This document shows positions 23,840-44,194 of a stretch of 64,000 nucleotides of DNA, piece after piece. The DNA is taken from assembly GCA_963785725.1 (NCBI GenBank), contig CAWAWS010000015.1:288001-352000 (forward strand), in the 5' to 3' direction. A program made the translations under genes and the position numbers. Every line of letters begins with the position of its first letter. Positions within the stretch are counted from its first letter, which is position 1. This stretch comes from an uncultured delta proteobacterium. GTDB lineage: Bacteria > Myxococcota_A > Polyangia > Palsa-1104. The notes under the pieces are model-generated. The model had not been told where the DNA came from and did not search any database. It saw only the letters and a list, made by a program, of their open reading frames with translations.

Positions 23840-25159
23840 GTGGCCACCGAAGAAGACCGTCTGGCCGACGAGCTGGCGTCGCTGAGGCTCGATCGCAGCA
23901 CAACGCGTCGCGCCCCGGTGCGCATGCGCGCCGTCGCAGACACTCCCATCAGCAGCAACAACAACGATCGCGCGAGCCGAGTCGATAGTCGGCGGCGCGG
24001 CTTTCCCACCGGGATATTGGTGGTCTTGGCGCTCGTCGCGCTCGGCGTAGGCGGCTTTTTCGTCTATCGCGAAGGCTCGGGGCGCTTCTTGGCCACCGAC
24101 GTCGACGTGGGCGCGGTGACGCTGATGTCGCCCGCGCAGTCGGACGTGACGCTGGTGGCGACGGGCTACGTCTTCGCGCGCAAGAAGGCGACGGTGGCGC
24201 CGAAGACGACCGGCCGGCTCGCCAAGCTCTACGTCGACGAGGGCTCGGTCGTCAAAGAGGGGCAGCTCATCGCCGAGCTGGAGTCGGCCGATGCGCAGGC
24301 GGCGCTGGCGCAGACGCGCGCCGACATCGCCGCCGCGCGCGCCAAGGTGACGCGCGCCGGCTCCGACGTCACCGACACCACGACGCGCTCCAAGCGCGCC
24401 GACGATCTCAGCCAAAAGCAGGCCGGAACGCGCGCCGACGCCGATGACGCGCGCGCGCGGCTCGACGCGGCCAAGACGACGCTGGCCTCGGCGCAAGCGG
24501 ACGTCAAAGCGGTGGAGGCGCGCCAGGATTCGATGAACGTGGCGCTCGAGAACACCAAAGTCCGCGCGCCGTTCGCGGGCACGGTCATTCGCAAGCTGAC
24601 CGAGATCGGCGAGTTCATTCCGCCGCAGTCGCCGGGCGTCGTGCAGCTGGCGTCGCTCGACGACTTGGAAGTGCAAGCGGACGTCGCCGAAGCGCAGTTT
24701 CACAAGGTGAAGATGGGGACGCCGGCCGAGATCATCCTCGACGCCTTCCCCGACAAGCGCTTTCGCGGCCGCGTGACCGACTTGCGGCCGATGGTCGATC
24801 GCTCGAAGGCGTCGGTGACCGTCAAGGTCCGCTTCGTCGACCCGTCGGACGGCGTGCTGCCGGACATGGCGGCCAAGGTCAGCTTCCTGTCGAAGGCGCT
24901 CGACGACGCGGCGCTCAAGGCCGCGCCCAAGCTCATCGTGCCGTCGGACGCCGTCGTCGAGCGCAACGGGCAGCACGTCGTCTTCACCGTCGAGGAAGAG
25001 CACGCCCACGCGCTGCCGGTCACGATCAAAGGGCCCTTCGGCGCGCCCGGATCGGGCGAGCTCGAATTGAGCGACGGCCCGGCGACGGGCACGCGCGTCA
25101 TCCGCCATCCCGACGAGCAGATCCGCGAAGGCGTGAGCGTCAAGGAGAAGAAGAAGTGA
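23840..25159 (+). CDS. Periplasmic adaptor (MacA/HlyD family)
   Basis: TM anchor, lipoyl halves (LYVDEGSVVKEGQLIAEL; VRAPFAGTV), coiled hairpin. Confidence 0.9.
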   Translation: MATEEDRLADELASLRLDRSTTRRAPVRMRAVADTPISSNNNDRASRVDSRRRGFPTGILVVLALVALGVGGFFVYREGSGRFLATDVDVGAVTLMSPAQSDVTLVATGYVFARKKATVAPKTTGRLAKLYVDEGSVVKEGQLIAELESADAQAALAQTRADIAAARAKVTRAGSDVTDTTTRSKRADDLSQKQAGTRADADDARARLDAAKTTLASAQADVKAVEARQDSMNVALENTKVRAPFAGTVIRKLTEIGEFIPPQSPGVVQLASLDDLEVQADVAEAQFHKVKMGTPAEIILDAFPDKRFRGRVTDLRPMVDRSKASVTVKVRFVDPSDGVLPDMAAKVSFLSKALDDAALKAAPKLIVPSDAVVERNGQHVVFTVEEEHAHALPVTIKGPFGAPGSGELELSDGPATGTRVIRHPDEQIREGVSVKEKKK

Positions 25160-25233
25160 GCGAGCGCGAGCGAGCGAGCGTGCCAGCCGATCGATTGGGC
25201 CGCTCACGGGGCGCCGAAGAGGTGGCCCGGTGA
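25156..25233 (+). other. Junction mini-ORF element A ([25 protein letters not shown])
   Basis: Its GTG overlaps the adaptor stop and its TGA overlaps the ATPase GTG; similar to the elements at 36794 and 44138. Confidence 0.65.
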
Positions 25234-25949
25234 GCGAGGCTGAAGCGGTCAAAGAGCCGATCATTCGGCTGCGCGGCGTGCGCAAAGTCTACATGCGCGA
25301 TCAGCAGTCGATTCCGGTCTTGCAAGGCATCGATCTCGACATTCCCGACGGCAGCTTCGAGGCGCTCATGGGTCCGTCGGGCTCGGGTAAGACGACGCTG
25401 CTCAACCTCATCGCCGGCATCGACAACGCCTCGGCGGGCTCGGTGGAGGTGGCCGGCACCGACTTGACGCGGCTGTCGGAGGGCGATCTGTCGTCCTGGC
25501 GCGCGAGCAATATCGGTTTTATTTTCCAGTTTTATAATCTGTTACCGGTATTCACCGCGTTCCAGAACGTCGAGCTGCCGCTGCTGTTGACGAACCTCAA
25601 CAAGGCCGAGCGCAAGAAGCGGGTGGAGACGGCGTTGCGCGTCGTCGGGCTCGAAGATCGCATGGACCACTATCCGCGTCAGCTGTCGGGCGGGCAGGAG
25701 CAGCGCGTGGCCATCGCCCGCGCCATCGTCACCGATCCGACGATCCTCGTCGCTGACGAGCCGACGGGTGATCTCGATCGCAAGAGCGCCGAGGAGATCT
25801 TGAAGCTGCTCGATCTCCTGCATCGTAAGTTCAATAAGACGATCGTCATGGTGACGCACGACCCGGCGGCGGCGCAGGCGGCGGGCGTCATTCGCCGGCT
25901 CGACAAAGGGCAGCTGCTCGCCGACTCGTCGCAAGGCCCGCATCGCTAG
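25230..25949 (+). CDS. ABC transporter ATP-binding protein (MacB/LolD family)
   Basis: [36 protein letters not shown]. Confidence 0.93.
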
Positions 25950-25952
25950 CAC

Positions 25953-27116
25953 ATGAGTTATTTCTTACTGATATTCAAAAGCGCGTTTCGTAATCGGTTA
26001 CGGACGCTTTTGACGTCGGTGGGCGTGGCCATCGCCATCGTCGCGTTCCTGTTCCTGCGCACCTTCATCGGCGCTTGGTACAACGGGCTCGAGGGCGCGC
26101 AGTCGGACCGCGTCATCGTGCGCAACAAGATCTCGATCACCTTCCCGATGCCGCTCAGCTACGTCGACAAAGTGCGCAACATCGTCGGCGACAAGGGCGT
26201 CGTCTCCTACGAAAACTGGTTCGGCGCCACCTACGCCAAGGACGAGCACGGCTTCTTCGCCAACCTCGCCTGCGACGACGACATCTTCAAGATGTACCCC
26301 GAGCTCGAGGTCTCGCCCGAAGCGTGGAAGGCGTACGTCGAGGATCGCCAGGGCGCCATGATCGGTCCGCACTTGGCCGAGAAATACGGCTGGAAAGTCG
26401 GCGATCGGGTGACGCTGACGGGCACGATCTTCCCCGGCAATTGGGACTTCAACGTGCGCGCCATCTACGACTCCTCGGCGCGCAGCATCGACAAGTCGAC
26501 GCTCTATTTCCACTGGAAATACATGAACGAGAAGCTCGACGACAGCCGCAAGGACAACGTCGGCCTCATCTTCGTCAAGGTCAACGACCCGGGCCAGTCG
26601 AGCGCGCTGCAAGTGGCCATCGATCGCAACTTCGCCAACTCGCTGGCCGAGACGCGCACCGAGAGCGAGAAGGCGTTTCAGCTCGAGTTCCTGTCGATGG
26701 CGTCGGCGCTCGTGGGCGCGATTCAGATCATCTCCGGCGTCGTGCTCGTCATCCTGATGCTCATCTTGGCCAACACGCTGGCCATGGCGACGCGCGAAAG
26801 AACGACGGAATACGCGGTCATGCGCGCCATCGGCTTTCACCCGCGGCACATCGTCGGCATGGTCCTCGGCGAAGGATTCATCATCGCGCTCGTCGGTGTG
26901 CTCATCGGCGTGACCTTGGCGGCGCCGGTCATCAAGTTCTCGGGGCAGATGCTGGAGAAGCAGATGGGCGGGCTCATGAGCGGCTTCGACCTGCGCTTGG
27001 AGCCGGTGCTGCTCTCGGTCGGCGTGGCGCTGGTGCTCGGCATGATGGCGGCGGCGCTGCCGGCGTGGCGCGCGGGCAAGCTCAAGATCGTCGACGCCTT
27101 GCGACGGGTCGAATAA
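25953..27116 (+). CDS. ABC transporter permease (MacB/FtsX family)
   Basis: RNRLRTLLT, periplasmic domain, ERTTEYAVMRAIGF, 4 TM. Confidence 0.9.
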   Translation: MSYFLLIFKSAFRNRLRTLLTSVGVAIAIVAFLFLRTFIGAWYNGLEGAQSDRVIVRNKISITFPMPLSYVDKVRNIVGDKGVVSYENWFGATYAKDEHGFFANLACDDDIFKMYPELEVSPEAWKAYVEDRQGAMIGPHLAEKYGWKVGDRVTLTGTIFPGNWDFNVRAIYDSSARSIDKSTLYFHWKYMNEKLDDSRKDNVGLIFVKVNDPGQSSALQVAIDRNFANSLAETRTESEKAFQLEFLSMASALVGAIQIISGVVLVILMLILANTLAMATRERTTEYAVMRAIGFHPRHIVGMVLGEGFIIALVGVLIGVTLAAPVIKFSGQMLEKQMGGLMSGFDLRLEPVLLSVGVALVLGMMAAALPAWRAGKLKIVDALRRVE

Positions 27117-27118
27117 CG

Positions 27119-28432
27119 ATGGCGCTCATCCTCAAGCTGGCGACGATGATCGTGGGCGCGCTCATCGGCGGCACGGTCATCAGCCTCATCCTCGGGCTCA
27201 TCGGCTCGCTGGTGGTGACGACGGTGCTCGGCCTCTCGCTGCTCGGCCGGCGCGATTGGGTGCCGCTCGTGTACAACGTGCGCTCGCTCGGCGTGCGCCG
27301 CTGGACGACCGGCGTGACGGCGTTCGGCCTGGCGCTGGTCGTGTTCGTGTTCACGACGGTGCTGATGCTGGCGTCGGGCGTGCGCGAGACGTTGAAGGCG
27401 ACCGGCCAGCCCAACAACGCCAAGATCATCCGCAAAGGCTCGCAGAACGAGCTGCAGTCGGGCCTCTTGCCCGAGCATTTACGGCTGTTGTCGGCGTCGC
27501 CGGAAGTGGCGCCGGGCCTCGACGGCAAGCCGCTGGTGTCGCCCGAGCTCGTCGTGCTCATCTTCGCGGTCAAGGCGCACGGCGCCGGCGAAGAGGACGG
27601 CACCAACGTCAACGTGCGCGGCGTCGGTCCGGGCGCGCTCGAGCTGCACCCGCCGAAACATTTGGAGGGGCGTATGTTTCGCCCCGGCACGTCGGAGATC
27701 GTCATCGGCAAGGGGCTGCAAGGGCGCTTTCGCGGCATGCAGCTGGGCGAGACGACGCGTTTTGCGCGCCGCGACTGGACCGTCGTCGGCGTCATGGACT
27801 GCGGCGGCTCCGCCTACGACTCCGAAGTTTGGGGCGACGTCGACCAGTTCATGGACGCCTTCGCGCGCCGCCCGTCGGTGTCGTCGCTGACGATGCGGCT
27901 GCGCGATCCGAAGCTCCTGTCGGCGCTGCAGGCGCGGCTCGAGTCCGATCCCAACTTGTCGACGCTGGAAGCGAAGAGCGAGGTCGACTATTGGGCGGCG
28001 CAGTCCGAGCAGTTCTCGCTCTTCGTGCGCTTCTTGGGCGTGTTCGTGGCCGTCATGTTCTCGGTCGGCGCCGCGTTGGGCGCGATGATCACGATGTACG
28101 CGCAGGTCGCGGCGCGCACGCGCGAGATCGGCACCTTGCGCGCGCTCGGCTTTCGGCGGCGCGCCGTCCTGGTGTCGTTCGTGGCCGAGTCGGTGATCCT
28201 CGGGCTCATCGCCGGCGTCATCGGTGTGTCGTGCGCGTCGGGCATGCAGCTGGCGACGTTCACGACCATGAACTTCCAGACGTTCAGCGAGGTCTCGTTC
28301 CGCTTTCACATGTCGGGCGGCATCGTGGCGGCGGCGATCGGCTTCGCGTTCACGATGGGCTTCGCCGGCGGCTTCTTGCCCGCGCGGCGCGCCGCCATGT
28401 TGCCGATCGTCCGCGCCACCCGCGGCGGCTGA
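27119..28432 (+). CDS. ABC transporter permease (MacB/FtsX family), second subunit
   Basis: ATG 27119; YNVRSL...TTGVTAFG, RTREIGTLRALGF. Confidence 0.9.
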   Translation: MALILKLATMIVGALIGGTVISLILGLIGSLVVTTVLGLSLLGRRDWVPLVYNVRSLGVRRWTTGVTAFGLALVVFVFTTVLMLASGVRETLKATGQPNNAKIIRKGSQNELQSGLLPEHLRLLSASPEVAPGLDGKPLVSPELVVLIFAVKAHGAGEEDGTNVNVRGVGPGALELHPPKHLEGRMFRPGTSEIVIGKGLQGRFRGMQLGETTRFARRDWTVVGVMDCGGSAYDSEVWGDVDQFMDAFARRPSVSSLTMRLRDPKLLSALQARLESDPNLSTLEAKSEVDYWAAQSEQFSLFVRFLGVFVAVMFSVGAALGAMITMYAQVAARTREIGTLRALGFRRRAVLVSFVAESVILGLIAGVIGVSCASGMQLATFTTMNFQTFSEVSFRFHMSGGIVAAAIGFAFTMGFAGGFLPARRAAMLPIVRATRGG

Positions 28433-28434
28433 CG

Positions 28435-28810
28435 TCAGCGATCGCGACGGCAGAGCACGACGGCGGTGTCGTCGTGCAGCGCGCCCGAACGCAGCCGCAC
28501 GCGGATAGGTGACCGCCAGCTGGGTGGCGGACGTCCAGCGTCGGGGCGGCGCCGTGGTTGTCGTCGGCGATGAAGACGTTGCCGCCCTCCTTGGGCTGCT
28601 GCGCGGTGGGGATGACCGACAGCTGCGTCGAGAAGCCGGTGGTGGCGTCGCAGTCGCGCTCGAAGAGCACGGCGGTGCGGACGCCGTCGGGAGACGTCAA
28701 CGCCGTGATGAGCAGGTTGCCGCACGCGCCCGACGATCCGCTGCAGCCTGCCAGTGATCCGGTGATGCACCAGGCGAGACCGATGACAGCCAACGCGATT
28801 CTCAGGTCAT
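28435..28810 (-). CDS. Small putative lipoprotein, apparently frameshifted
   Basis: SLAG-C lipobox, then CGN...SPDG...AVLFERDCDATTGFSTQLS; continuation RWTSATQLAVTYP lies in another frame. Both ends uncertain. Confidence 0.5.
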
Positions 28811-28828
28811 CTCCCGGGCCGATTCCGA

Positions 28829-29599
28829 TTATTCGCGGGCGAGGGGGAAGAGCACGCGGGCGCCGGTGCGCGGGTGGACGCCGGTGGCGACGTCGACGTC
28901 GAAGGCGGCGCGGATGCGCGCTTCGGTGAGCACGTCGTCGACGCTGCCGACGATGGCGGGAGCGCCCGGCGACAAGAGCGCGACGCGCGTGCACCAGCTG
29001 GCCGCGAGGTTGAGATCGTGCACGACGACGGCGATGGCGGCGCCGGCGCGTCGACGGGCATCGAGCAGCCGGAACAGATCGAGCTGGTGGCGCAGATCGA
29101 GCGCCGCGGTGGGCTCGTCGAGCACGAGCACCGGCGTGTCCTGCGCCAGCGCCCGCGCCAAGAGCACGCGCTTGCGCTCGCCGCCCGACAGCTCGCCGAG
29201 CGGGCGGTCGGCGAGCGCGAGGACGCCCGTGTCGCGCATGGCGGCTTCGGCGGCGGCGACGTCGGCGGCGCGCTCGAAGCCGAGCACACCCAAGCGCGCG
29301 CGCCGGCCCATGAGCACGACCTCGAGCGCGCGAAACGGGAACTCGAGCGGCTCGTCCTGCAGCACCGCGGCGACGAGGCGGGCGCGCTCGCGCGGCGGCA
29401 GCGACGTCAGGTCGCGCTCGCCGACCAAGACGCGACCGGCTTGCGGCGCGACCAGCCCGAGCATGAGGCGCGCCAGCGTCGACTTGCCGGCGCCGTTGGG
29501 ACCGACGATGCCGACGAGCTCGCCGGCGTCCAGCGTCAGCGTCAGATCGCGTAACAGCGGCGCGCCGTAAGCGTACGAGACGTTGGCGCAGCGGATCAG
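28829..29599 (-). CDS. btuD: Corrinoid/iron-chelate ABC transporter ATPase (BtuD/FepC-like), probable CTG start
   Basis: In-frame extension of the track ORF restores Walker A GPNGAGKST; LSGGERKR, LDEPT, VVHDLN. Confidence 0.82.
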   Translation of the reverse strand: MIRCANVSYAYGAPLLRDLTLTLDAGELVGIVGPNGAGKSTLARLMLGLVAPQAGRVLVGERDLTSLPPRERARLVAAVLQDEPLEFPFRALEVVLMGRRARLGVLGFERAADVAAAEAAMRDTGVLALADRPLGELSGGERKRVLLARALAQDTPVLVLDEPTAALDLRHQLDLFRLLDARRRAGAAIAVVVHDLNLAASWCTRVALLSPGAPAIVGSVDDVLTEARIRAAFDVDVATGVHPRTGARVLFPLARE

Positions 29600-30423
29600 G
29601 GATGCACCAGCTTGGCCAGCTGCTCGATGCCGTCGACGAGCCGCGGTCCCGGGCGAAACAGCAGATCGCCGTCGAGCGCGTGCAGGCGATGGTTGCGCAC
29701 CGCCGGCAGCGTCGTCTGCGTCTCCAGCGGCGACAGCGACGGCGCCTGCGCGTGCGAGCCGACGACGATGACCTCGGGCGCGCGCGCCAGCAGCCGCTCG
29801 AGGCTGTATTGCGGATAGGGCACGGGCGAGTCGCCGGCCACGTCGTCACCGCCGGCGACGCGGATGGCTTCGTCGACGAAGGTGTGGCCGCCGGCGACGG
29901 TGAGCGGCTCGGTCCAGACGACGACGAGCGTGCGCGGCCGCGGCTTGCCGGCGACCGCTTGGGCGACGGCGGCGAGGCGCGCGCGACCGTCGGCGACCAG
30001 CTTGGCGGCGGCGTCCGCTCGGCCGACGGCGGCGCCGACCGACGTCAGGTCGCGCCAGACGTCGTCGAGCGTCTCGACGTGGCTGACGACCACGCGTAAG
30101 CCGAGCTTCTGCAGCTGCTCGACGAGCTCGCGCGTGTTGGCCGACTCGGCCGCGAACACGACGTCGGGCCGCAGCGCTAGAATGCGCTCGACGCTCGGCG
30201 CCAGCTCGTTGCCGACGCGCGGCAACGTGCGCGCGGCCGGCGGATAGTCGCTGAACTGATCGACGCCGACGATGCGCTCGCCGGCGCCGAGCGCGAACAG
30301 GACCTCGGTCGTCGACGGCGCCAGCGAGACGATGCGGCGCACGGGCGCGTCGGCCGGCGCCGGCCGGCGTTCGTGATGGCAGCCGAGCAGCAAGATCGCG
30401 ACGAAAATCGGGACTGAGCGCAT
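29596..30423 (-). CDS. btuF: Cobalamin-binding lipoprotein
   Basis: LLG-C lipobox; RIVSLAPSTTEVLFALG, VGVDQFSDYP, RPGPRL; B12 context. Confidence 0.85.
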   Translation of the reverse strand: MRSVPIFVAILLLGCHHERRPAPADAPVRRIVSLAPSTTEVLFALGAGERIVGVDQFSDYPPAARTLPRVGNELAPSVERILALRPDVVFAAESANTRELVEQLQKLGLRVVVSHVETLDDVWRDLTSVGAAVGRADAAAKLVADGRARLAAVAQAVAGKPRPRTLVVVWTEPLTVAGGHTFVDEAIRVAGGDDVAGDSPVPYPQYSLERLLARAPEVIVVGSHAQAPSLSPLETQTTLPAVRNHRLHALDGDLLFRPGPRLVDGIEQLAKLVHP

Positions 30424-31449
30424 CACCAAGCACCCTCGGCGCCACGACGACGCAAGATGACGAGAAAGAGCGGGGCGCCGACGAGCGCGGTCAGCACGCC
30501 GACGGCGGGCTCGGTGCCGACGACGAGGAAGCCGAGCCGCGCCGCCGCGTCGGCGAGCACGAGGAAGGCCGCGCCGCCGAACAGCGCCGCCGGTAACAAG
30601 CAGGCGATGGTCGGCGCCGACGAGCCGGCGCAGCGCGTGCGGCACGACGATGCCGACGAAGCCGATCGGTCCGGCGAACGCGACCGCCGCCGCCGTCGCC
30701 AGCGACGCCGCCAGGAACACGATGCGACGGGCGCGGGCGACGTCGACGCCGACCGAGCGCGCCGCTTCGTCGCCGAGCGCCAGCACGTTCAAGTCGGCCG
30801 CCGTCAGCGCCAGCGCCGCCAAGGCCACCGCCAAGTAGACCGCGAGCACGCCGACGCGCGCGCCGTCGGCGACGCCGAGCGCGCCGACGAGCCAGCCGAG
30901 CGTCTCGGCGACGGCGTGCGGCGACATCCACGTGCGCAGGCCGAGGACGAGCGCGCCGGCGAGCGCGTTGACGACGACGCCGGCGAGCAGCGCCAGCTGC
31001 GGCACGAGCTGCCCGCGCGCCCGGCCGAACGCCAGCACCGCGCCGACGGCGACGAGCGCGCCGCCGAACGCCCACGCCGGTCGCGTCCACGCGCCGAGCG
31101 CGCCGGCGCCGCCGAAGAGCGCCGCCGCCGTGCCCGCGACCGCCGCGCCGCCCGAGACGCCGAGCACGTAAGGATCGGCCAGCGGGTTACGCAAGAGCGC
31201 CTGAAACGCCACGCCCGACGCCGACAGCGCGGCGCCGACGAGCGCGCCCAGCAACACGCGCGGCCCGCGCGCGCCAAAGAGGATGGCGGCATCGAGCGAC
31301 GCGCGGTCACCGAAGGCGCGCCCGAAGTCGACGCGCTCGACGCCGACGGCCAGCGACGCCGCGACCGCCAGCGCCGCCAACAGCGCCGACGTAAGCGTCA
31401 CCAGCACCACCCGTCGCGGCGTGGCGCGCGTCCTCGACCACGCGTGCAT
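30423..31449 (-). CDS. btuC: FecCD/BtuC-family permease (frameshift ~30597)
   Basis: LLRNPLADPYVLGVSGGA, LGDEAARSVGV, IGFVGIVVPH; C-terminus GVLTALVGAPLF in the next frame. Confidence 0.85.
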
Positions 31450-31473
31450 GCGCCATGGTACATATCACGCGCC

Positions 31474-32217
31474 ATGCGTACCTTCCTCGTCGCCGTGCAG
31501 CTGTTGACGCGGCTGCCCGTGCGGCTCGGGTCGGCGCCGTCGGAGCGCGAGCTCGGGTGGGCGGCGGCGTGGTTCCCGCTCGTCGGTGCCGGCGTGGGCG
31601 CGTGCGCGGCCGGCGCGTTCTGGCTGACGACCTGGGCGCACTTGCCGTCGCTGGCGGCGTGGGCGGCGCTGGGCGCGGCGGTCGTGGCCACGGGCGGCTT
31701 CCACGAGGACGGGCTGGCCGACTGCGCCGACGGCCTCTTCGGCGGTCACGATCCGGCGCGCCGCTTGGCCATCATGCGCGACTCGCGGCTCGGCAGCTAC
31801 GGCGTGCTGGCGCTGGTGTTGACGCTGGGCGCGCAAACGGCGGCGGTCGGCGCGCTGCCGCCGTCGCTGGCGCTGCGCACGATCGTGGCCGCGCACGCGC
31901 TCGGTCGCGCCGCGGCGCTGCCGTTGACCGCGCTGCCGTACGCCCGCGCCGAAGGCGGCCTCGGCAGCTCGCTGGCGCAAAAGGTGCCGCCGGCGGCGTT
32001 GGCCTTGGCGCTCACGACGGGCGCGTTGTCGCTGCTGCTCTTGCCGTGGCTTCCGGCGCTGTTGGCGGCGGGCGTCGCGGCCGTGGTCGTCTGCTTGGCC
32101 GCGCGGCGCTTTCGGCGCGACTTGGGCGGCGTCACCGGCGACGCGCTCGGCGCCGTCGTCAAGCTGACGGAATTCGCCACCTACGTCGTCGCCGCGGCCT
32201 GGGCAGCGCGGCCATGA
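31474..32217 (+). CDS. cobS: Adenosylcobinamide-GDP ribazoletransferase
   Basis: LLTRLP, TGGFHEDGLADCADG, IMRDSRLGSYG, GGVTGDALGA. Confidence 0.94.
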   Translation: MRTFLVAVQLLTRLPVRLGSAPSERELGWAAAWFPLVGAGVGACAAGAFWLTTWAHLPSLAAWAALGAAVVATGGFHEDGLADCADGLFGGHDPARRLAIMRDSRLGSYGVLALVLTLGAQTAAVGALPPSLALRTIVAAHALGRAAALPLTALPYARAEGGLGSSLAQKVPPAALALALTTGALSLLLLPWLPALLAAGVAAVVVCLAARRFRRDLGGVTGDALGAVVKLTEFATYVVAAAWAARP

Positions 32218-32756
32218 TCGAGCGTGTGTCGAGCAGCCGCTACATCGTCGTCACCGGTGGCGCGCGCTCGGGCAAGAGCCGTTTTGCCGAGGCGCGCGTC
32301 GCCGAGTTGGCGCCGGCCGGACCGTGGCTCTACCTCGCGACCGCCGAAGCCGGCGACGACGAGATGCGCGACCGAATCGCGCGGCATCGGCAGCGCCGCG
32401 GCCGATTGTGGCGCACCGTCGAAGCGTCGCGCGACGTGGCCGGCTCGCTCAGCGGCGACCTGGGCGGCGCCCAAGCCGTGCTCATCGACTGCGCGACCTT
32501 GTGGCTGTCGAACCGGCTGTTCGACGGGCTCGGCGACGACGCCATCCTCGCCGAAGCCGACGCCATCGCCGCCGCCGCCCGCGCCGCGCCGGTGCCGGTC
32601 CTCATCGTCACCAACGAAGTCGGCGCCGGCATCGTGCCCGACAACGCGCTGGCGCGCCGCTTTCGCGACCTCGCCGGCTTGGCCAATCAGCGGCTGGCCG
32701 CCGTCGCCGACGAGGTGGTCTTGGTCGCCTGCGGATTGCCGTTGCGGCTTCGCTGA
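32214..32756 (+). CDS. cobU: Adenosylcobinamide kinase/guanylyltransferase
   Basis: TGGARSGKS, YLATA, RIARHRQRR, IDCATLW, VTNEVGAG, FRDLAG. Confidence 0.95.
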   Translation: MIERVSSSRYIVVTGGARSGKSRFAEARVAELAPAGPWLYLATAEAGDDEMRDRIARHRQRRGRLWRTVEASRDVAGSLSGDLGGAQAVLIDCATLWLSNRLFDGLGDDAILAEADAIAAAARAAPVPVLIVTNEVGAGIVPDNALARRFRDLAGLANQRLAAVADEVVLVACGLPLRLR

Positions 32757-32814
32757 ATCGGCGCTTGACGCTGTCGCATATAGAAGCGTAAGAACAGCCT
32801 AAGTTATAGATAAC

Positions 32815-32980
32815 CGACAACCGAATAGCGCCTCGAAGGCAGGGAAGCCGGTCGCAAATCCGGCACGGTCCCGCCACTGTAGACGGTTCGCCGGCTCGAC
32901 AATGCCACTCGTCAGCGACGGGGAAGGCCGAGCTTGCCAGAGCGAGAGCGCTCTTGGCCGTGAGTCAGGAAACCTCCTTC
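32815..32980 (+). ncRNA. Cobalamin riboswitch
   Basis: AGGGAA-GCCGGT..AAATCCGGC, CCCGCCACTGT, GCCACT...GGGAAGG, AGTCAGGAAACC (B12 box) upstream of cbiX. Boundaries approximate. Confidence 0.92.
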
Positions 32981-33016
32981 GAGCGCGTCGCTTTCAGATT
33001 CTCCGGAGGAGAGAAG

Positions 33017-34228: not shown

Positions 34229-34245
34229 GCGAGGAGACACGAAAA

Positions 34246-34626: not shown

Positions 34627-34630
34627 CGCG

Positions 34631-35338: not shown

Positions 35339-35676
35339 TCGACGCGCTGCGGGCGGCACTGGCGGAGCCGGACGCGCGCGTCGTCGTGCGCACGCCGTCG
35401 GCGATCTGCGAGCTGCCAGGGCCGTTGCCGCTGCGCGCGGGCGACGAGTGGCTGACGGTCGGTCAGGAGGGCCAGCCGCACATCCATTTACGCGCCCTAG
35501 ACCTCCACGCGCTTGCCTTCGCCGCGCCCGATGACGGCAACGTCGCTCTCGAAGTCGTGGATGCGGCGGGTGCGCGCGTCGTGCGCGTGGCCTTCGCGCG
35601 CACCAACCCGGCCAAGGCCGAGTGCGATCACGCGCGCCGGGCGGTCGTCATCGCGCGGTACGGCGATGGAGCCTAA
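35335..35676 (+). CDS. Small hypothetical protein, possibly ChuX/HutX-like
   Basis: ATGA overlap; VVRTPSAICE...WLT...HIHL...ALEVVDAAG..VVRV pattern. Confidence 0.6.
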   Translation: MIDALRAALAEPDARVVVRTPSAICELPGPLPLRAGDEWLTVGQEGQPHIHLRALDLHALAFAAPDDGNVALEVVDAAGARVVRVAFARTNPAKAECDHARRAVVIARYGDGA

Positions 35677-35684
35677 GCCAGCCG

Positions 35685-36797
35685 ATGCAAAACCGGCCGC
35701 CGAAGGCGGAGCCGAAGGTGCGCGGCACCCGCACGGGGTTCACGACCGGCGCCTGCGCGGCGGCGGCGGCCAAGGCGGCGACGCGGCTGCTCGTGCGCGG
35801 CGAGCCGATGACGGCCATCGAGACGACGCTGCCCAATCGTGACCGCGTGACGTTCGCGCTCCATCGCTGCGAGCAGGCGGTCGTCGCCGGCGTGGCGCGC
35901 GCGACCTGCAGCATCATCAAAGACGCCGGCGACGATCCCGACTGCACCCACGGCGCCGAGCTCGTCGCCACCGTCGAGTTGCGCGTCGAGCCCGGCATCG
36001 AGCTGCGCGGCGGCGCCGGCGTGGCGACGGTGACCAAGCCCGGCCTCGGCCTCGACGTCGGCGGCCCGGCGATCAACCCGGTGCCGCGCCGCAACATCAG
36101 CGACATGGTGCAAGAAGAGCTGGTCGAGCGCGGCGGCGGCGCGGTCGTGACGGTGAGCGTGCCGGGCGGCGAAGAGATGGCGCTCAAAACGCTGAACGCG
36201 CGGCTCGGGCTCATCGGCGGCATCTCGATCTTGGGGACGACCGGCATCGTCAAGCCCTACTCGACGGCGGCTTACAAAGCCTCGGTGGTGCAGGCGATCG
36301 ACGTGGCGCACAAGCGCGGCATCACGGAGCTGGTGCTGACGACCGGCGGCAAGTCGGAGGCCTACGCCATGCAGCTGTACCCGCGCTTCGTCGAGGAGGC
36401 GTTCATCCAAGTGGGCGACTTCATCGGCACCGGCGTCAAACACTGCGCGCGCCGCGGAGTCGAGCGCGCCATCGTCGTCGGCATGATGGGCAAGCTGTCG
36501 AAGATGGCCAACGGCAAGATGCAGACGCACGCCGCCGGCTCGGAAGTAAACATGGGGTTACTTGCGGAGCTGGCGGCGGAGCTGGGCGCGCGCGACGAGG
36601 TCGTGGCCGAGATCCGCGCGGCCAACACGGCGCGACACGTGCTCGAGCTGTGTCAGCGCGAGGGTTTGACGGGCGTGACGACGCGGGTGTGCAAGCGCGT
36701 CGCCGAAAACTGCGCGGCGCACGCCGGCGGCCGCCTCGACGTGCACGCGCGCCTCGTCGACTTCAACGGAACGTTATTGGGGAGCTGGCCAGAATGA
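35685..36797 (+). CDS. cbiD: Cobalt-precorrin-5B C1-methyltransferase
   Basis: RTGFTTGACAAAAAKAA, KDAGDDPDCTHG, AINPVPR, GGISILGTTGIV. Confidence 0.95.
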   Translation: MQNRPPKAEPKVRGTRTGFTTGACAAAAAKAATRLLVRGEPMTAIETTLPNRDRVTFALHRCEQAVVAGVARATCSIIKDAGDDPDCTHGAELVATVELRVEPGIELRGGAGVATVTKPGLGLDVGGPAINPVPRRNISDMVQEELVERGGGAVVTVSVPGGEEMALKTLNARLGLIGGISILGTTGIVKPYSTAAYKASVVQAIDVAHKRGITELVLTTGGKSEAYAMQLYPRFVEEAFIQVGDFIGTGVKHCARRGVERAIVVGMMGKLSKMANGKMQTHAAGSEVNMGLLAELAAELGARDEVVAEIRAANTARHVLELCQREGLTGVTTRVCKRVAENCAAHAGGRLDVHARLVDFNGTLLGSWPE

Positions 36798-36895
36798 GCG
36801 AGCGTAGGCGAGCGAGAGTGAGCGTCCGGCCGGTAGGGCCAGCGGAAGCGGATCGATGGATTCGCTCATGGGGCACCAACCCGGTGCGCCCATGA
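36794..36895 (+). other. Junction mini-ORF element B (MSERRRARVSVRPVGPAEADRWIRSWGTNPVRP)
   Basis: ATGA overlaps with the cbiD stop and with the cbiC start; internal hairpin covers the cbiC ATG. Confidence 0.65.
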
Positions 36896-37554
36896 GCAAT
36901 CAGACGAACGACATGCGGCAGCTGACCGGGCTCGGGCGCAGCATCGAGGACTCGAGCTTCGGCATCATCGACGCCGAGGCGGGCGCGCACGACTTCGACG
37001 CGCGGCAGTGGCAGGTCGTCCGCCGCGTCATCCACGCCACCGCCGACTTCGAGTTCAAGACGCTGATGCAGCTGACGCCCGACGCCATCGAATCCGGCAT
37101 CCGCGCGCTCACGAGCGGCTGCCCCATCGTCTGCGACGTCAAAATGATCATCGCCGGCTTGAACGAGGAGCGCCTGGCCTCGTACGGCTGCCGGACCTAC
37201 TGCTTCATCAGCGACGAGGACGTCATCGCCGAGGCCAAGGCGCGCAATTCGACGCGCGCCATCGAGGCCATGAAGAAGGCGCACGCGCTCGGCCTCCTCG
37301 ACGGCGCCGTCGTCGCCGTCGGCAACGCGCCCACCGCGCTCATCGAGACGGCGCGGCTGGTCAAGGAGCTGGGCGCCAAGCCGGCGCTCATCATCGGCGT
37401 GCCGGTCGGGTTCGTCTCAGCGGCGGAGTCGAAGGAGATCGCGATCGGGACGCCGGCGCCGTCGATCGTCGCGCGCGGCCGCAAAGGCGGCTCGACGATC
37501 GCCGTCGCCATCATTCACGCGCTCCTGCTCTTGTCGACGGAAGCCAAAGCGTGA
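36892..37554 (+). CDS. cbiC: Cobalt-precorrin-8 methylmutase
   Basis: IEDSSFGII, RVIHATADF, VGNAPTAL, GVPVGFVSAAESK, GRKGGS. Confidence 0.95.
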   Translation: MSNQTNDMRQLTGLGRSIEDSSFGIIDAEAGAHDFDARQWQVVRRVIHATADFEFKTLMQLTPDAIESGIRALTSGCPIVCDVKMIIAGLNEERLASYGCRTYCFISDEDVIAEAKARNSTRAIEAMKKAHALGLLDGAVVAVGNAPTALIETARLVKELGAKPALIIGVPVGFVSAAESKEIAIGTPAPSIVARGRKGGSTIAVAIIHALLLLSTEAKA

Positions 37555-38777
37555 GACGGGCGCTGACGCTCATCGGCATCAACGACGACGGCTGCGCCGG
37601 CCTGACGGCGCGCGCGGTCAACGCCGTCGCGGCCGCGCAGGTGCTGGCCGGCGGTGAGCGTCAATTGGCGTTTTTCCCGCAGTTCGTCGGCCAGCGCATC
37701 GTCTTGCAAGCGGGCTTGACGGAGGCGATCGAGCGACTGTCGCAGCTCGCCGACGAGCACCAAGTGGTGGTCTTGGCCTCGGGCGATCCGCTCTTCTTCG
37801 GCATCGGCGCGCTCCTGGTGAAGAAGCTGGGCGCAGAGCACGTCGAGATCGTGCCGGCGCCGTCGAGCATGCAGCTGGCGTTCGCGCGCGCGGGCCTGAA
37901 GTGGGACGACGCCGCCTTTGTGTCGCTGCACGGCCGTTCGCGCGCGGGCTTGCTGACGAAATTGCGCCGCCTGTCGAAGGTGGCGCTGTTCACCGACGAA
38001 GAGAATTCGCCGCGCTGGGTGGCGTCGCAGCTGCTGGCGCACGAGCAGCTCGGCTGGCACGCCTGGGTGTGCGAGAACTTGGGCGGCACCGACGAGCGCG
38101 TGCGCCGTTTTACGATCGCGGAGCTGGCTGGCTGCGACGACATCGCGCCGCTCAACGTGCTCATCTTGCAGCGCAGCGATCCCGATTGGCGGCCGCCGCC
38201 GGCGATCTCGTTCCTGCATGAAGACGACTTCGCCAAGCGCATGCCGAAAAAAGGGCTGATTACGAAGCGTGAGGCGCGGCTGTTGTCGCTGGCGCTCATG
38301 CAGCTGCGCCCGTCGAGCGTCGTCTGGGACGTCGGCGCCGGCTCGGGCTCGGTGTCGATCGAAGCGGCGATGCTGGCGCGCGAAGGCAGCGTCTTCGCCG
38401 TCGAGATCGATCCCGAAGGCGTGGAGATTTGTCGCGAAAACGTGCGCGCGCATGGCGTCGACAACGTCCGCGTCGTCGCCGGCCGCGCGCCCGAGGCGTT
38501 GACCGAATTGCCCGATCCCGACGCCGTCTTCGTCGGCGGCAGCAAAGGCTCGATGGCCGAGATCATCGAGGTCGCGCTGGCGCGGCTCAAGCCGGGCGGG
38601 CGGCTCGTCGTCAACGCCATCACGATGGAGAACGTGGGCGAGACCTACAAGTGCCTGCGCGAGCGTGATCTGCAGCCGGAAGTCATCCTCTTGAACGTGT
38701 CGCGGGCCGAGCCGCTGGCGCGCTACATGCGTTACGAAGCGCAAAACCCGATTCACATTTTCGCGGTGAATAAGTGA
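37551..38777 (+). CDS. cbiET: Bifunctional CbiE/CbiT (CobL-like) methyltransferase-decarboxylase
   Basis: LASGDPLFFGIG, SLHGR, ITKREAR, WDVGAGSGSV, PDAVFVGGS. Confidence 0.93.
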   Translation: MRRALTLIGINDDGCAGLTARAVNAVAAAQVLAGGERQLAFFPQFVGQRIVLQAGLTEAIERLSQLADEHQVVVLASGDPLFFGIGALLVKKLGAEHVEIVPAPSSMQLAFARAGLKWDDAAFVSLHGRSRAGLLTKLRRLSKVALFTDEENSPRWVASQLLAHEQLGWHAWVCENLGGTDERVRRFTIAELAGCDDIAPLNVLILQRSDPDWRPPPAISFLHEDDFAKRMPKKGLITKREARLLSLALMQLRPSSVVWDVGAGSGSVSIEAAMLAREGSVFAVEIDPEGVEICRENVRAHGVDNVRVVAGRAPEALTELPDPDAVFVGGSKGSMAEIIEVALARLKPGGRLVVNAITMENVGETYKCLRERDLQPEVILLNVSRAEPLARYMRYEAQNPIHIFAVNK

Positions 38778-39550
38778 AAACTGGCAAGCTATATGGCGTC
38801 GGCGTCGGTCCGGGCGCGCCCGATTTGGTGACGCTGCGCGCGCTCCACGTCATGCGCACCGTCGACGTCTTGGCGCTGCCGCGCTCGAACGACTGGGGCG
38901 AGTCGATGGCCTGGAAGATCGTCGCGCCGCATCTCGAGCATGAGGAAAAGGCGGAGAAACTATTCCTCACCTTTCCCATGAATAAAGATCCCGAGCGGCT
39001 GAGGCCGGCGATCGCCAAGGCGTTGGACGCGATCGGGCCGCGGTTGGCGGCGGGGAAGTCGGTCGCGTTCGTGACCGAAGGCGATCCCTCGCTCTATTCG
39101 ACGTTCATCTACGTCGCGGCCGAGGCGCGGCGTCGCTTCGACGGGCTGGAGGTCGAGGTCGTGCCGGCGGTGTCGTCGCCGATGGCGGTGGCGGCCGTGA
39201 CCGGCGTGCCGCTCGCCGACGGCCAAGAGCGCATCGCCATCATCCCCGGCAACTACGGCGTCGGCGATCTCGACGGCATCTTGCGCGCGTTCGACACCAT
39301 CGTGCTCATGAAGATCGGGCCCGAAATGCCGCAGATTCTCGCCGCGCTCGAGCGCTGCGGGCTCGTCGATCGCGCCGTCTACGTCGCCAAGGCCACGATG
39401 GCCGAGCAGCGCATCGTGCGCGACTTGGCGAGCGTGTCGGCCGAGCGCGGCGACTGCTTCGCCATGGTCATCGTGTCGAAGAAGGAGCGCGCCGGCGTGC
39501 TCGTCGGCGAGTCGCCGCCCGTCGTCATCGCCAACGAGGCCCAGTCGTGA
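38774..39550 (+). CDS. cbiL: Cobalt-precorrin-2 C20-methyltransferase
   Basis: LYGVGVGPGAPDLVT, FPM, TEGDPSLYSTF, VLMK. Confidence 0.92.
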   Translation: MKTGKLYGVGVGPGAPDLVTLRALHVMRTVDVLALPRSNDWGESMAWKIVAPHLEHEEKAEKLFLTFPMNKDPERLRPAIAKALDAIGPRLAAGKSVAFVTEGDPSLYSTFIYVAAEARRRFDGLEVEVVPAVSSPMAVAAVTGVPLADGQERIAIIPGNYGVGDLDGILRAFDTIVLMKIGPEMPQILAALERCGLVDRAVYVAKATMAEQRIVRDLASVSAERGDCFAMVIVSKKERAGVLVGESPPVVIANEAQS

Positions 39551-40693
39551 GCGCGCGCAAACCGTGGGCGCTGTACGCGATCACGACGCACGGCATCGCC
39601 ATCGCCACCAAGCTCTTGCAGGCGCTGCCCGACGCCGATCTGTACGTGAGCGAGAAGTTGTTCGCCAAGGCGCCGCCGGGCGCGAAGCCGATGCCGTTGC
39701 CGATGGGGCCGACGCTGGCGGCGACGTTCACCGAATACGACTGCCACGTGCATGTCATCTCGGTCGGCGCCGTCGTGCGCATGGTCGCGCCGCTCCTGCA
39801 GAACAAGAAGGTCGACCCGGCCATCGTCTGCGTCGACGACGCCGCGCGCTTCGCCATCTGCGTCTTGTCCGGCCACGTCGGGCGCGGCAACGCCTTTTGC
39901 GATCGCGTCGCCGCCATCCTCGACGCCACGTCGGTCGTCACCACCGCCTCCGACGTGCGCGGCACGCTCACCGTCGACATCTTGGGCCGCGAGCTCGGCT
40001 GGACGCTCGAGGATCTCGACCGCAACGTCACGCGTGGCTGCGCCGCCGTCGTCAACGCCGCGCCGGTGCTGTTCGTGCAGGAGACGGGCGAGCCGGCGTT
40101 TTGGCCGCTCGATCGCGCGCTGCCCGAAGGCGTCACCTACGCGACCTCGCTCGACGGCGTCGATCCGGCGAAATACGAGATCCTGCTCATCGCCACCGAT
40201 CGCGAGATCCGCGAGACGGCACGCGCGCAGTGGGAGAACGCGGTCGTCTATCGGCCGCAGTCGCTGGTGCTCGGCATCGGCTGCGACAAGCTGACGCCGC
40301 CCGAGCTCGTCGAGCGCGGCGTGCGCCAGCTGTTGACGCGGCATGCGCTGGCGCTGCAATCGGTGCGCGCGATCGCCACCATCGACGTCAAGAAAGATGA
40401 ACCGGCGCTGCAAATGTTAACGCAAAAGTTGAATATTCCGCTGGTGACCTATACGGCGGCGGAGCTGGACGCGGTGGCCATGCCGACGCCGTCGGAGCTG
40501 GTCATGAAGCACGTGGGCACGCGCGGCGTGGCCGAGCCGGCGGCGCAGCTGGCGGCCGGCGCCATCGTGCCGTCGGCGCTGGGCGCGGCGGAGCTGATCG
40601 TTCCCGAAGCAGATTTACACGGAGGAGGGCGCGGGCCGCTCGATGACGTTCGCCGTCGCGCGCGTGCCGTTCGCCAAACGGGTGATCGCGTGA
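39547..40693 (+). CDS. cbiG: Cobalt-precorrin-5A hydrolase (frameshift ~40602)
   Basis: KVDPAIVCVD, LSGHVGRGN, VTTASD, LGIGC, GVAEPAA; tail PKQIY...TFAVAR in the next frame. Confidence 0.9.
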
Positions 40694-41541
40694 GCGGTAT
40701 TCTCTATGTCGTCGGCATCGGGCCGGGCGCGGCCGAGCACACGACGCCGGCGGCGCTGGCGGCCATCGCCGACGCCGAGCTCGTCGTCGGCTATCGCACG
40801 TACATCGGGCTCGTCCAGCACCTCATCGACGGCAAGGAGGTCGTGCAGACGGGCATGACCGAGGAGATCGGCCGCGCGCGGGCGGCGGTCGAGCGGGCGC
40901 GCGACGGCGGCGAAGGTGGCGCTGATCTCGTCCGGCGACGCCGGCGTCTACGGCATGGCCGGCCTGGTCTTCGAGGTGCTGCGCGAGATCGGCTGGAAGC
41001 GGGGCGAGTCGCCCGAGCTGCGGATCATTCCGGGCATGACGGCGCTCAACTCCTGCGCGTCGCTGCGTCGGGGCGCCGCTCGTGCACGACTTCTGCGCGA
41101 TCTCGCTCTCGGACCTGCTGACGCCGTGGCCGGTGATCGAGAAGCGCCTCAGGCGGCGGCGGCGGCCGACTTCGTCATCGGGCTCTACAACCCGGCCAGC
41201 GGACGGCGCACGCGGCAGATCGTCGAGGCGCAGCGCATCTTGCTCGCGCATCGCGCGCCCGAGACGCCGGTGGCGCTGGTCAAGAGCGCGTACCGCGAGC
41301 TCGAGCAGATCGTGCTGACCGACCTCGATCACTTCCTCGGACTACGAGATCGGCATGCTGACGACGGTGCTCATCGGGAGCTCGCAACACGTTCATGTTC
41401 GAGGGCTACATGGTCACGCCGCGCGGCTACACGAACAAGTACACCTGGGACGGCGAGGTGCGGCCGGGGCAAAAGCCGGCGCGCTCGCTGGTCGTCGACG
41501 GAGCGCTGCCGACGGCGCCGCTGGCGAAGGCGAGCGAATGA
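40690..41541 (+). CDS. cbiH: Cobalt-precorrin-3B C17-methyltransferase (several frameshifts)
   Basis: [48 protein letters not shown] across frames. Confidence 0.9.
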
Positions 41542-41920
41542 TGGCGCGCGTCGGGCGTTACAAAGGCGCGATCGTCGTCGAGACGAGCGGCGCGCAGTGG
41601 CTGGTCGGCAATCCCAAAGAGCCGTGCGCGGAAGTGCCGGATACGCTGGAGGCGCCTTATGTTCGCGTGCTCGCGACGACGGTGCCGCTCGCGTGCCCGG
41701 CTTCGTCGTCGACGGTGAAGAGGGGGCCGCGCTGGCGCTGGCGCTCGCCGGCAAGCTCGTCATCGCGCGCAACGGCAGCGTCTCGGAGCGGCTGTGGCGG
41801 CTCGTGTACGCGGCGAAGCGACCACGGGCGAGCCGCGCTTGCGAGTGGCTGGCCGGCGAGATGCCGGCAGCCGATCTGGGAGATCGTCCGCGACACAAGT
41901 CCTCGTGCAGGAGCTCATGA
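41538..41920 (+). CDS. Hypothetical protein between cbiH and cbiF (frameshifted)
   Basis: [14 protein letters not shown]...WLVGNPKEPC, then in another frame LVIARNGSVSERLWRLV; overlaps both neighbours. Confidence 0.55.
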
Positions 41921-42696
41921 GGTGCTACATCATCGGCGCCGGCCCCGGCGATCCCGAAGCTCATCACCGTCAGCGGCGCAGAGCTCATCGCGCGCTGCCC
42001 GGTCGTCTTCTACACGGGCTCGCTCGTGCCCGAGGCGGTCATCGCGCGCGCTCGCAAAGACGCCAAGGTGCTCGACTGCTCGGGCATGACGCTCGACGAA
42101 ATCGTCGCCGTCATCGTCGCCGCGCGCGACGCCAGCCAGGACGTCGCGCGCGTGCACACCGGCGATCCGTCGGTCTTCGGCTCGACGGCGGAGCAGATGC
42201 GGCGCCTGCACGAGCTCGGCATCGAGTGCGAGATCGTGCCCGGCGTGTCGTCGTTCTCGGCGGCGGCGGCGGCCATCGGCAAAGAGCTGACCCTGCCCGA
42301 GCTGTGTCAGACGGTCATCCTGACGCGCGCCGAAGGGCGGACGCCGATGCCGCCCGACGAGAAGCTCGAGGATCTGGCGCGTCACCGGGCGACCCTCTGC
42401 CTGTTCCTGTCGCATCACGCTGATGAAGGACGTGTCGACGGCGCTGACCCCGTCGTACGGCGCCGATTGCCCGGTGGCGGTCGTGCACAAGGCGTGGTGG
42501 CCCGATCAGCAGATCGTGTGGGCGACCGTCGGTGACATGGCGGAGCAGGTGGAAGCGGCGGGGTTGAAGGCGACGTGCATGGTGCTGGTCGGGCGCGTGC
42601 TTGACGGCCGAGGACTTCGCCGACTCGCGCCTGTACGCGCCGGAGTTTTCGCATGGTTTTCGGCGGGCGCGGCCGCGCGCGGGTGTCACGCGATGA
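41917..42696 (+). CDS. cbiF: Cobalt-precorrin-4 C11-methyltransferase (several frameshifts)
   Basis: IGAGPGDP, RVHTGDPSVFG, ELTLPE..QTVILTR, SRLYAPEFSHGFR. Confidence 0.9.
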
Positions 42697-44141
42697 CGAT
42701 GGGCTTCGTCCATCTCGTCGGCGCGGGCCCGGGCGATCCGGCGCTGTTGACGGTGCGCGCGCGCCAGCTCCTCGACGGCTGCGATGTCGTGGCTTACGAC
42801 GAGCTGTGCTCGGACGCGCTCTTGGCCGGCGTGCCGGCGACGGCCGAGCTGTTGCCGGTCGGTCGGCGCGCCAATGATGGGCAGAGCCGCGAAGGTTGTC
42901 TGCATCCGGCGGTGCTCGAGCGTGCGCGAGCGGGCAAGCGCGTCGTGCGGTTGAAGGCGGGCGATCCGCTGATCTTCGGGCGCGGCGGCGAAGAGGCCGA
43001 GGAGTTGGCGGCTGCGGGCGTGCCGTTCGACATCGTCCCCGGCGTGTCGGCGGCGCTGGGCGCGGCGGCCTATGCCGGCATTCCGCTGACCCATCGCCAT
43101 CTGTCGTCGTCGGTTGCGTTTGCGACGGGCCACGAAGGCGAAGGCGCGCCCGACGCCGGCACGCTCGTCTTGTACATGGCGGGCAAGAAGTTGGCGGCGA
43201 ACCTGGCGCGCGTCATCGCCGACGGGCGCGCGGCGACGACGCCGGCCGCGTACGTCGCGTCGGCGACGACGGCACGGCAGCGGGTCATCGTCGGCACGCT
43301 GGCCGATTTGCCGGCGCGCGTGGCCGCCGCCGACGTCGACGCGGCGGCGCCGGCGCTCGTCATCGTCGGCGACGTCGTGGCCTTGCGCGACAAAGTCGGC
43401 TGGCGCGAAAAGCGGCCGCTTGCGGGTCGGCGTGTGCTCGTCGGCCGCGCGCGCCCCGGCCGCTCGCAGCTGACGGCGCGTCTGACCGCGCTCGGCGCCG
43501 AAGTCGTGGAGGCGCCCGACGTCAGCGTCGCGCCGCCCGCCGACTGGACGCCGTTCACCCACGCGCTCGAGGCGCTCGATCTCGTCGATGCCATCGTCTT
43601 CGCCAGTGCCGAAGCGGTGACGGCGACGGTGGCGCAATTGGGCGCGCTCGGTCGCGACCTGCGCTCCTTGCCCTGGCTGCCGTTCGTCGCCGTCGGCCTA
43701 CCCACCGCCGAGGCGCTGCGCCGGCATGGCCTCGTGCCGGCCATCGTCGCGCCGGGCGCCTGCGCCGATGCGCTCGCCGGCCACGCGGCGCTGGCGTCCG
43801 GTCGGCTGCTCGTGCTCGCCGATGACAGCGGCCGCCCGCAGCTGGCCGCGGAGTTGCGCGCGCTCGGGGCGCGCGTCGACGTCGTCGCCGTCTATCGGCA
43901 CGCGCTGTCGTGGCCGCGCTTGCGCGATCTGCAGTTCGATCTCGTCATCGCGCCCTCGTCGTCGGCGGCGCAGCATCTGGCCGACGGTCCGTACGGCGCC
44001 GAATTGCGCGCGCAGCGCTGGCTGGCGATGGGCCCTTTGACCGAAGCCGCCGCGCAAAAGCTGGGCGTCCGCACCATCCAGCGCGCCGCCAGCGACGACG
44101 TCGCCAGCTTGGCCGCGCGCGCCGAGGAGCTTTTGGCATGA
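42693..44141 (+). CDS. cobA: Uroporphyrinogen-III C-methyltransferase fused to a HemD-like domain
   Basis: VHLVGAGPGDPALLT, RLKAGDPLIFGRGGEE, AGIPLTHR, then PLAGRRVLVGR HemD-like half. Confidence 0.9.
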   Translation: MTMGFVHLVGAGPGDPALLTVRARQLLDGCDVVAYDELCSDALLAGVPATAELLPVGRRANDGQSREGCLHPAVLERARAGKRVVRLKAGDPLIFGRGGEEAEELAAAGVPFDIVPGVSAALGAAAYAGIPLTHRHLSSSVAFATGHEGEGAPDAGTLVLYMAGKKLAANLARVIADGRAATTPAAYVASATTARQRVIVGTLADLPARVAAADVDAAAPALVIVGDVVALRDKVGWREKRPLAGRRVLVGRARPGRSQLTARLTALGAEVVEAPDVSVAPPADWTPFTHALEALDLVDAIVFASAEAVTATVAQLGALGRDLRSLPWLPFVAVGLPTAEALRRHGLVPAIVAPGACADALAGHAALASGRLLVLADDSGRPQLAAELRALGARVDVVAVYRHALSWPRLRDLQFDLVIAPSSSAAQHLADGPYGAELRAQRWLAMGPLTEAAAQKLGVRTIQRAASDDVASLAARAEELLA

Positions 44142-44194
44142 GCGAACGTCAGCGCGCGGAGCGACCGATTTGGTCACGGGGTATCGGCGGATGA
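44138..44194 (+). other. Junction mini-ORF element C (MSERQRAERPIWSRGIGG)
   Basis: ATGA overlaps with the cobA-hemD stop and with the cobO start. Confidence 0.6.

Follow-up and report, generated by a model that had tools for sequence, protein, structure and literature searches.

This study describes a repeat of about 90 bases that occupies three stop/start junctions in a 64,000-nt stretch of DNA (hereafter the window; contig CAWAWS010000015.1 of assembly GCA_963785725.1, positions 288,001 to 352,000, forward strand) from an uncultured delta proteobacterium of the lineage Myxococcota_A, Polyangia, Palsa-1104. The repeat forms a dispersed family whose copies hold a characteristic position and orientation between genes, carry an open reading frame (ORF), fold into hairpins that covary, and are missing from orthologous junctions. 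Based on these observations, it is probable, at roughly 70%, that the family is a non-autonomous repeat resembling mycobacterial interspersed repetitive units (MIRUs), that it spreads, invariably in sense orientation, into RTGA overlaps and other start codons, and that a translational relay through its mini-ORF lets operons tolerate the insert. It is apparently a new family of this already described layout in myxobacteria-like soil bacteria.

Repeat copies at stop/start overlaps

All three window copies lie on the forward strand. Copy 1 (25156..25233; 53.5 bits with the covariance model R1) has its middle hairpin deleted, copy 2 (36794..36895; 89.7 bits, being itself a training sequence of R1) is full length, and copy 3 (44138..44194; profile E 0.015) is shortened and decayed and is absent from the 46 matches of R1 in this genome. 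Translation bore out the proposal of the initial annotation that the three gaps are exactly filled by stop-free frames of 25, 33 and 18 amino acids overlapping both neighbours: the head RTGA holds the TGA of the upstream gene, and the terminal RTGA holds the RTG of the downstream gene. The same double coupling was seen at only 5 of 5000 random RTGA sites taken as a chance control. The start-to-start distances (74, 98 and 53 nt) are all 2 mod 3, as had been pointed out, but because the double overlap forces this spacing, it provides no separate evidence. The direct repeat RTGAGC, likewise pointed out, does bound all three window copies, but family-wide only RTGA is constantly repeated, the terminal RTGA being followed by GC in 36 of 56 copies as compared with 175 of 797 plain overlaps.

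A profile built from 24 hand-picked copies found 48 repeat units at E <= 0.2 in the genome, which merged into 40 loci, and R1 was built from 34 copies. Units are mostly 74-98 nt long and stand in tandem arrays of two to three at 6 of the 40 loci, and the interior of an opposite-strand gene holds none of the 40. An unbroken stop-to-start chain, mostly of -4 overlaps, runs through 27 of the 40 loci, in one case via an in-frame fusion; among controls, gaps of 40-130 nt, 129 of 1007 show such a chain (Fisher p 1e-14). Genes were called here by our own simple hexamer model and not by a standard gene finder. The real test of frame keeping came from copies selected by the head only (77 and 72 copies). 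The first in-frame stop falls on RTGA in 58 of the 77 copies defined by the head motif and in 63 of the 72 distinct, readable metagenome heads, 5 of which remain open and 4 of which stop elsewhere; the stop of a coding-like upstream ORF coincides with the head position in 49 of the 62 metagenome heads for which this was testable. Codon 5 is TAG in none of 149 heads, although the preceding base is T in 77, and CAG is its commonest form.

A conserved functional peptide was considered and rejected, since likeness is confined to the first 8-19 codons, residue 5 is Q, E or K, and the tail varies freely. The likeness that had been noticed among the three window peptides is present, but reflects conserved nucleotide structure. 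The search pattern suggested in the initial annotation matches, taken literally, only the three window copies and is too narrow for the family. Random positions, orientations and phases genome-wide, named there as the outcome that would speak against the idea, were looked for; the copies were found to be oriented and placed on stop/start overlaps, and the idea was not contradicted. A head-like match at window position 49289 is part of ordinary coding DNA and was not accepted as a copy.

Short relays are not limited to the family in this genome. Of its non-direct RTGA stops, 105 of 351 are followed by a double-overlap mini-ORF no longer than 120 nt, as compared with 59 of 496 CTGA stops; about 20 of these short relays correspond to complete copies of the repeat and several to stubs of its head or tail, and relays of this kind may characterise the genome in general. 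Two other tandem arrays of RTGAGCGA-like units, at C7:655922 (47-48 nt) and C39:259653 (ca. 15-16 nt), fall outside the family by profile.

Three hairpins and the covariation of arms with both starts

The consensus contains three hairpins, H1, H2 and H3, in a repeat of ca. 89-92 nt. H1 (positions 1-24) is made of three two-pair steps split by tandem G.A and capped by a GNNA loop, and it contains the upstream stop and the mini-ORF start; in copy 1 (25156..25179, on the basis of family covariation) G-C/T-G pairs alternate with tandem G.A. Tandem G.A pairs are stable in an H1-like context. Positions 1 and 24 were G-C in 49, A-T in 12, A-C in 9, G-T in 1 and A-G in 1 of the metagenome copies, and G-C in 11, A-T in 11 and other in 9 copies of this genome, the search patterns having fixed the remaining H1 positions in part. 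H2 consists of five pairs closing a loop of 3 nt and is represented in copy 2 with one mismatch at 36828..36840 (columns 35-47 of alignment A1). In H3, an internal GCTCAY pairs with the terminal RTGAGC, so that the downstream start is buried: H3 covers the downstream GTG in copy 1 (25202..25235; -30.7 kcal/mol, z -3.43) and the cbiC ATG in copy 2 (36864..36897; -32.4 kcal/mol, z -5.21). The pairing probability of the downstream start exceeds 0.8 in 39 of 56 copies, compared with 91 of 300 plain junctions. Folding with DNA parameters was not clearly above shuffles (z -2.35 to 0.01).

H2 and H3 were named from single-sequence folds and then counted in alignments. In A1, double-sided changes occurred in 9 of the 19 pairs of H2 and H3, and pairing reached 89%, against 84% in shuffled and 31-42% in slid alignments. 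In A2, whose 61 matches represent 54 of the 79 metagenome loci after exclusion of near-duplicates of relatives' copies and of short or cut ones, such changes occurred in 13 of 25 pairs; A2 was fitted to H2 and H3, and is therefore biased towards them. The left arm of H3 is Watson-Crick with the first base of the downstream start in 25 of 34 copies, whereas the head tracks this base in 19 of 34. The same arm tracks the two host bases that follow RTGA (75 of 102 outer pairs, as compared with 58.5 by permutation), and with an independent anchor, available for 27 of 67 copies, left arm and host base pair in 44 of 54 cases as compared with 32.0, kinship of the copies inflating both the covariation and the permutation tests.

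These features suggest the following course of events. A ribosome terminating on the upstream gene would restart at the overlapping RTG via the host's pre-existing Shine-Dalgarno (SD) site; translation of the mini-ORF (ca. 30 codons) would melt the 3' hairpin in which the downstream start is buried; and the ribosome, halting at the terminal RTGA, would restart on the downstream gene, the mini-ORF peptide being presumably a by-product. With the start held in a hairpin, downstream translation would come to depend on that of the mini-ORF, in the manner of the RNA-unfolding model set out in passages of PMC12548453. Because the relay would restore coupling to the downstream gene, the insert would cost little and would survive only where the frame and the overlaps are maintained. 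Copies may later multiply in tandem, or lose sequence through phase-keeping deletions until stubs of 11-50 nt are left.

The pairing of position 24 and of the H3 left arm with the junction might also mean that the target is read by base pairing, the two complementing the stop/start overlap and the two host bases that follow it since matching variants insert there. The repeat would then be an enzyme-less, self-guided element adapted to coupled junctions, and would also place the downstream start under a lock opened by translation. We consider this unlikely; if true, base-pairing target choice would make site finding by MIRU-like repeats testable in a non-pathogen.

Filled, empty and decayed sites in relatives

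Site 1 of the window separates the gene of an efflux periplasmic adaptor subunit (23840..25159, our own gene call with an uncertain start at 23840 or 24020; TIGR01730, 175 bits, cut-off 94.9) from that of an ABC transporter ATPase, LolD/MacB-like, whose scores lie under the cut-offs of the named families (25230..25949). Site 2 lies between cbiD (35622..36797; TIGR00312, 415 bits, cut-off 200) and cbiC/cobH, encoding precorrin-8X methylmutase (36892..37554), the start of which is backed by the orthologue in relative G003 and which has an in-frame ATG at 36856 within the repeat. Site 3 lies between a cobA-type fusion of uroporphyrinogen-III C-methyltransferase with a synthase-like domain, assigned by family matches (42423..44141), and cobO/btuR, encoding cob(I)yrinic acid a,c-diamide adenosyltransferase (44191..44721; NF004637, 237 bits, cut-off 185). 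All of these are on the forward strand. The SD-like GGAG that the initial annotation had placed before each mini-ORF does lie there, its end being 8, 9 and 8 nt away from the respective start (25144..25147, 36781..36784 and 44126..44129), but belongs to the host because GGAG also stands at relatives' empty junctions, namely that of site 1 and, in G003, that of site 2.

Empty orthologous junctions had been proposed as a check, and all three window sites are plain RTGA overlaps in relatives. In G003, which alone among five relatives yielded the genes concerned, the cbiD-cbiC and cobA-cobO junctions each consist of a plain ATGA overlap. At the adaptor-ATPase junction, G001, G002, G004 and G010 have a plain RTGA and G003 has a 14-nt relay. 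In G005, which belongs to another genus, this junction (L067) holds a two-unit array of another subtype than the copy at 25156, and the junction is possibly an insertion hot spot. In the reverse comparison, 24 copies of relatives were testable against this genome and 19 had an orthologous pair there, of which 10 were plain overlaps, the upstream frame being doubtful in 3 of these, and 6 were of other forms, including three relays of 11-23 nt. Among 39 metagenome copies tested, 26 had a pair, and the start overlaps the stop in 19 (including one TTGA, one with a head remnant and two from one junction), while 7 are of other forms. At three further sites, a full copy was found at none of 11 orthologous junctions. 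The G004 orthologue (L148) of the locus C24:125002 of this genome retains 17 nt of head plus tail that continue to overlap the two genes, and stubs of 14-17 nt overlapping both genes also occur at L003 and L140. When four DNA contig sets were compared over 24700-44600, no joint at copy 1, 2 or 3 was seen among the matches listed, an outcome that tells in neither direction.

R1 matched in 7 of 14 other genomes of the same family (26, 16, 8, 2, 2, 1 and 1 copies), in none of 27 genomes of other families of the order, and in none of 120 genomes of a phylum sample in which 33 candidates were scored per genome. The exact 31-base head was found in 15 stretches among species genomes, all 15 labelled Polyangia, Polyangium, Myxococcales or delta proteobacterium, and in 103 metagenome stretches, 80 of which were fetched; some metagenome copies are near-identical to relatives' copies, so that the sets are not independent. 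An exact search of viral contigs with a 32-base core gave no match. At the 30 of 44 gatB loci searched, no match to R1 improved on E 0.12. G010 carries a sister subfamily (L068-L072) that shares the head and the 3' hairpin but has a different middle and a poor R1 score.

The insert might now be kept, whatever its origin, because its 3' hairpin ties or tunes downstream translation to that of the mini-ORF. The fit of the H3 left arm to host bases past the start and the covariation of position 1 with 24 in diverged copies would agree with such a domesticated regulator, as would the observation that a few sites are common to genomes and that copy 3 is bridged unbroken by one contig of run X2. However, the orthologous junctions are mostly empty and copies decay into stubs that have lost the hairpin. 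Besides, the flanking genes share no common function: among the 72 of 96 flanking ORFs scanned, metabolic and regulatory families are mixed. Domestication of this kind thus appears distinctly unlikely.

The mode of spread

For the preferred reading, that of a non-autonomous repeat tolerated through a relay, the empty orthologous junctions, the copy number and the fixed orientation support the mobile repeat at RTGA-coupled junctions that had been suggested in the initial annotation, but simple duplication of the target is doubtful. TGA is repeated always, while the first bases of the head and tail RTGA are identical in only 41 of 67 copies and each tracks its internal hairpin partner. This disagreement speaks either against plain duplication or in favour of a subsequent change.

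Several observations weigh against a mobile, coupling-keeping repeat. Neither PF01797 nor PF01548 (HUH and IS110 transposases) matched in this genome, which is 88% complete, and no copy stands beside the PF01797 loci of relatives at the 10 of 31 loci searched (best 13.1 bits). RNAalifold on A1 returned the 5' region only, with neither H2 nor H3, and window copy 3 folds no better than shuffles, without a significant 3' hairpin (z +1.13). Ahead of the downstream start, SD-like GGAG, GAGG or AGGA is not enriched (21 of 56 copies, 295 of 797 plain overlaps). Outside one array, the nearest-neighbour identity of the genome's copies is 0.66-0.87, and the copies are, to judge from their divergence, old. 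A junction is filled in both genomes in 3 of the 19 orthologous pairs, and insertion is inseparable from precise loss because the empty sites belong to other species. The automatic chain test failed at 13 of the 40 loci, 7 without an upstream call, 4 without a downstream call and 2 broken; some of these failures, when inspected, were leader positions, small upstream genes or in-frame fusions. Since gatB is split into three stop-containing matches in the assembly of this genome (G000 C43:8956-9725), suggesting indel errors, single-base errors may explain some out-of-phase units.

No transposase family was matched by the 72 of 96 flanking ORFs scanned. Alternatively, the repeat might have no dedicated mobility and be spread via recombination or gene conversion at short RTGAGC matches, its arms perfected by template switching and no structural selection acting on it. 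Template switching occurs at quasi-palindromes. The excess of GC after the terminal RTGA and the tandem arrays at six loci agree with this, and the bases preceding head and tail are shared slightly above chance (sum 40 as compared with 22.8, p 0.001). However, almost every copy leaves the tandem G.A of H1 unpaired, which the search pattern in part dictates, and palindrome correction would erase it; six-base homology would also be scant for recombination. This explanation is therefore regarded as highly unlikely. Least probable, and given very little credence, is a repetitive extragenic palindromic (REP)-like element moved by an HUH enzyme of the REP-associated tyrosine transposase (RAYT) or IS200 type, with coupling as a survival filter only: the hairpins are imperfect and strand-specific, H2 contains a GTAG and 4 of 5 relatives have weak PF01797 matches, but the GTAG spans the loop and stem of H2 and not a palindrome end, the orientation is fixed with no inverted dimers, and in addition to the results with PF01797 given above, no match was found in G002, which has 16 copies and is 53% complete.

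Comparison with known systems

At the Rfam gathering threshold no repeat matched in the window, the only match being a cobalamin riboswitch (RF00174, 81 bits; 32820-32995, forward strand) which precedes the cob/cbi operon carrying two of the three copies; eight copy loci gave a best E of 1.3. The window also contains two tandem paralogous genes (14934-18181; ca. 1655 nt apart, 71-77% alike) and 12-nt repeats in coding sequence (10199-10332 and 16554-16627). The literature searches brought up no paper on this repeat family.

MIRUs (Supply et al. 1997) are considered here as they are presented in passages of PMC12548453, PMC3184786 and PMC4213456. According to these passages, MIRUs are mobile, enter start codons and have an ORF of their own that couples at -4 (PMC12548453); they measure 40-100 bp, number 40-50 copies, show filled and empty sites, 4-bp direct repeats and internal inverted repeats, and have ORFs overlapping both neighbours (PMC3184786); and they form tandem units of 77 and 53 bp (PMC4213456). 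The claim of the initial annotation that no family like this had been described was thus mistaken at the level of mechanism, as MIRUs have been published with this layout. The idea of a junction repeat that keeps coupling is not new; what is added here is the set of three hairpins and the covariation of arms with both starts and with host bases, the latter covariation not being mentioned in the consulted MIRU accounts.

Coupled translation at ATGA overlaps, whether through RNA unfolding or through reinitiation, and bicistronic 'delivery' ORFs, in the portion of PMC12548453 that treats them, likewise place a short upstream ORF over a hairpin-held start, whereas the module here recurs as a repeat between dozens of unrelated gene pairs. 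The repeat junctions are a test case for unfolding versus reinitiation models of coupling, and a natural alignment of more than 100 copies with covarying hairpins points to what selection keeps. For annotation, copies fused in frame yield false N-terminal extensions or start calls, as with cbiC at 36856.

REP sequences and bacterial interspersed mosaic elements with GTAG/CGTC tags and RAYTs, as covered in part in PMC3733652, are likewise short, intergenic, GC-rich hairpin repeats, and REP ends can supply stops; the available main text of that paper mentions neither myxobacteria nor MIRUs. Unlike them, the repeat here is sense-fixed at starts, has an open frame and carries no tag at a palindrome end, and no flanked RAYT was seen at the 10 of 31 loci searched in these incomplete genomes. 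Miniature inverted-repeat transposable elements, according to the relevant part of PMC3184786, are likewise non-autonomous with a short target-like duplication, but the ends of the repeat here are direct repeats in the consensus and there are no terminal inverted repeats.

With MIRUs, by contrast, the likeness to the published descriptions extends to unit size and copy number (mostly 74-98 nt; 48 units at 40 loci), to the double -4 overlap in the same orientation (27 of 40 chains, 63 of 72 heads), to filled and empty sites and a direct repeat with TGA constant and the first base agreeing in 41 of 67, to tandem arrays (6 of 40 loci) and to internal G-C-rich inverted repeats, though RNAalifold missed these; the MIRU unit lengths of 77 and 53 bp, too, are 2 mod 3. 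The systems were compared by description, and the host here is a Polyangia-labelled lineage and not Mycobacterium. The repeat thus works like a MIRU, every architectural feature tested having been found, but is not filed as one because of its host, and the MIRU way of life, that is, entry into operons at stop/start overlaps with coupling rebuilt, would not be confined to mycobacteria.

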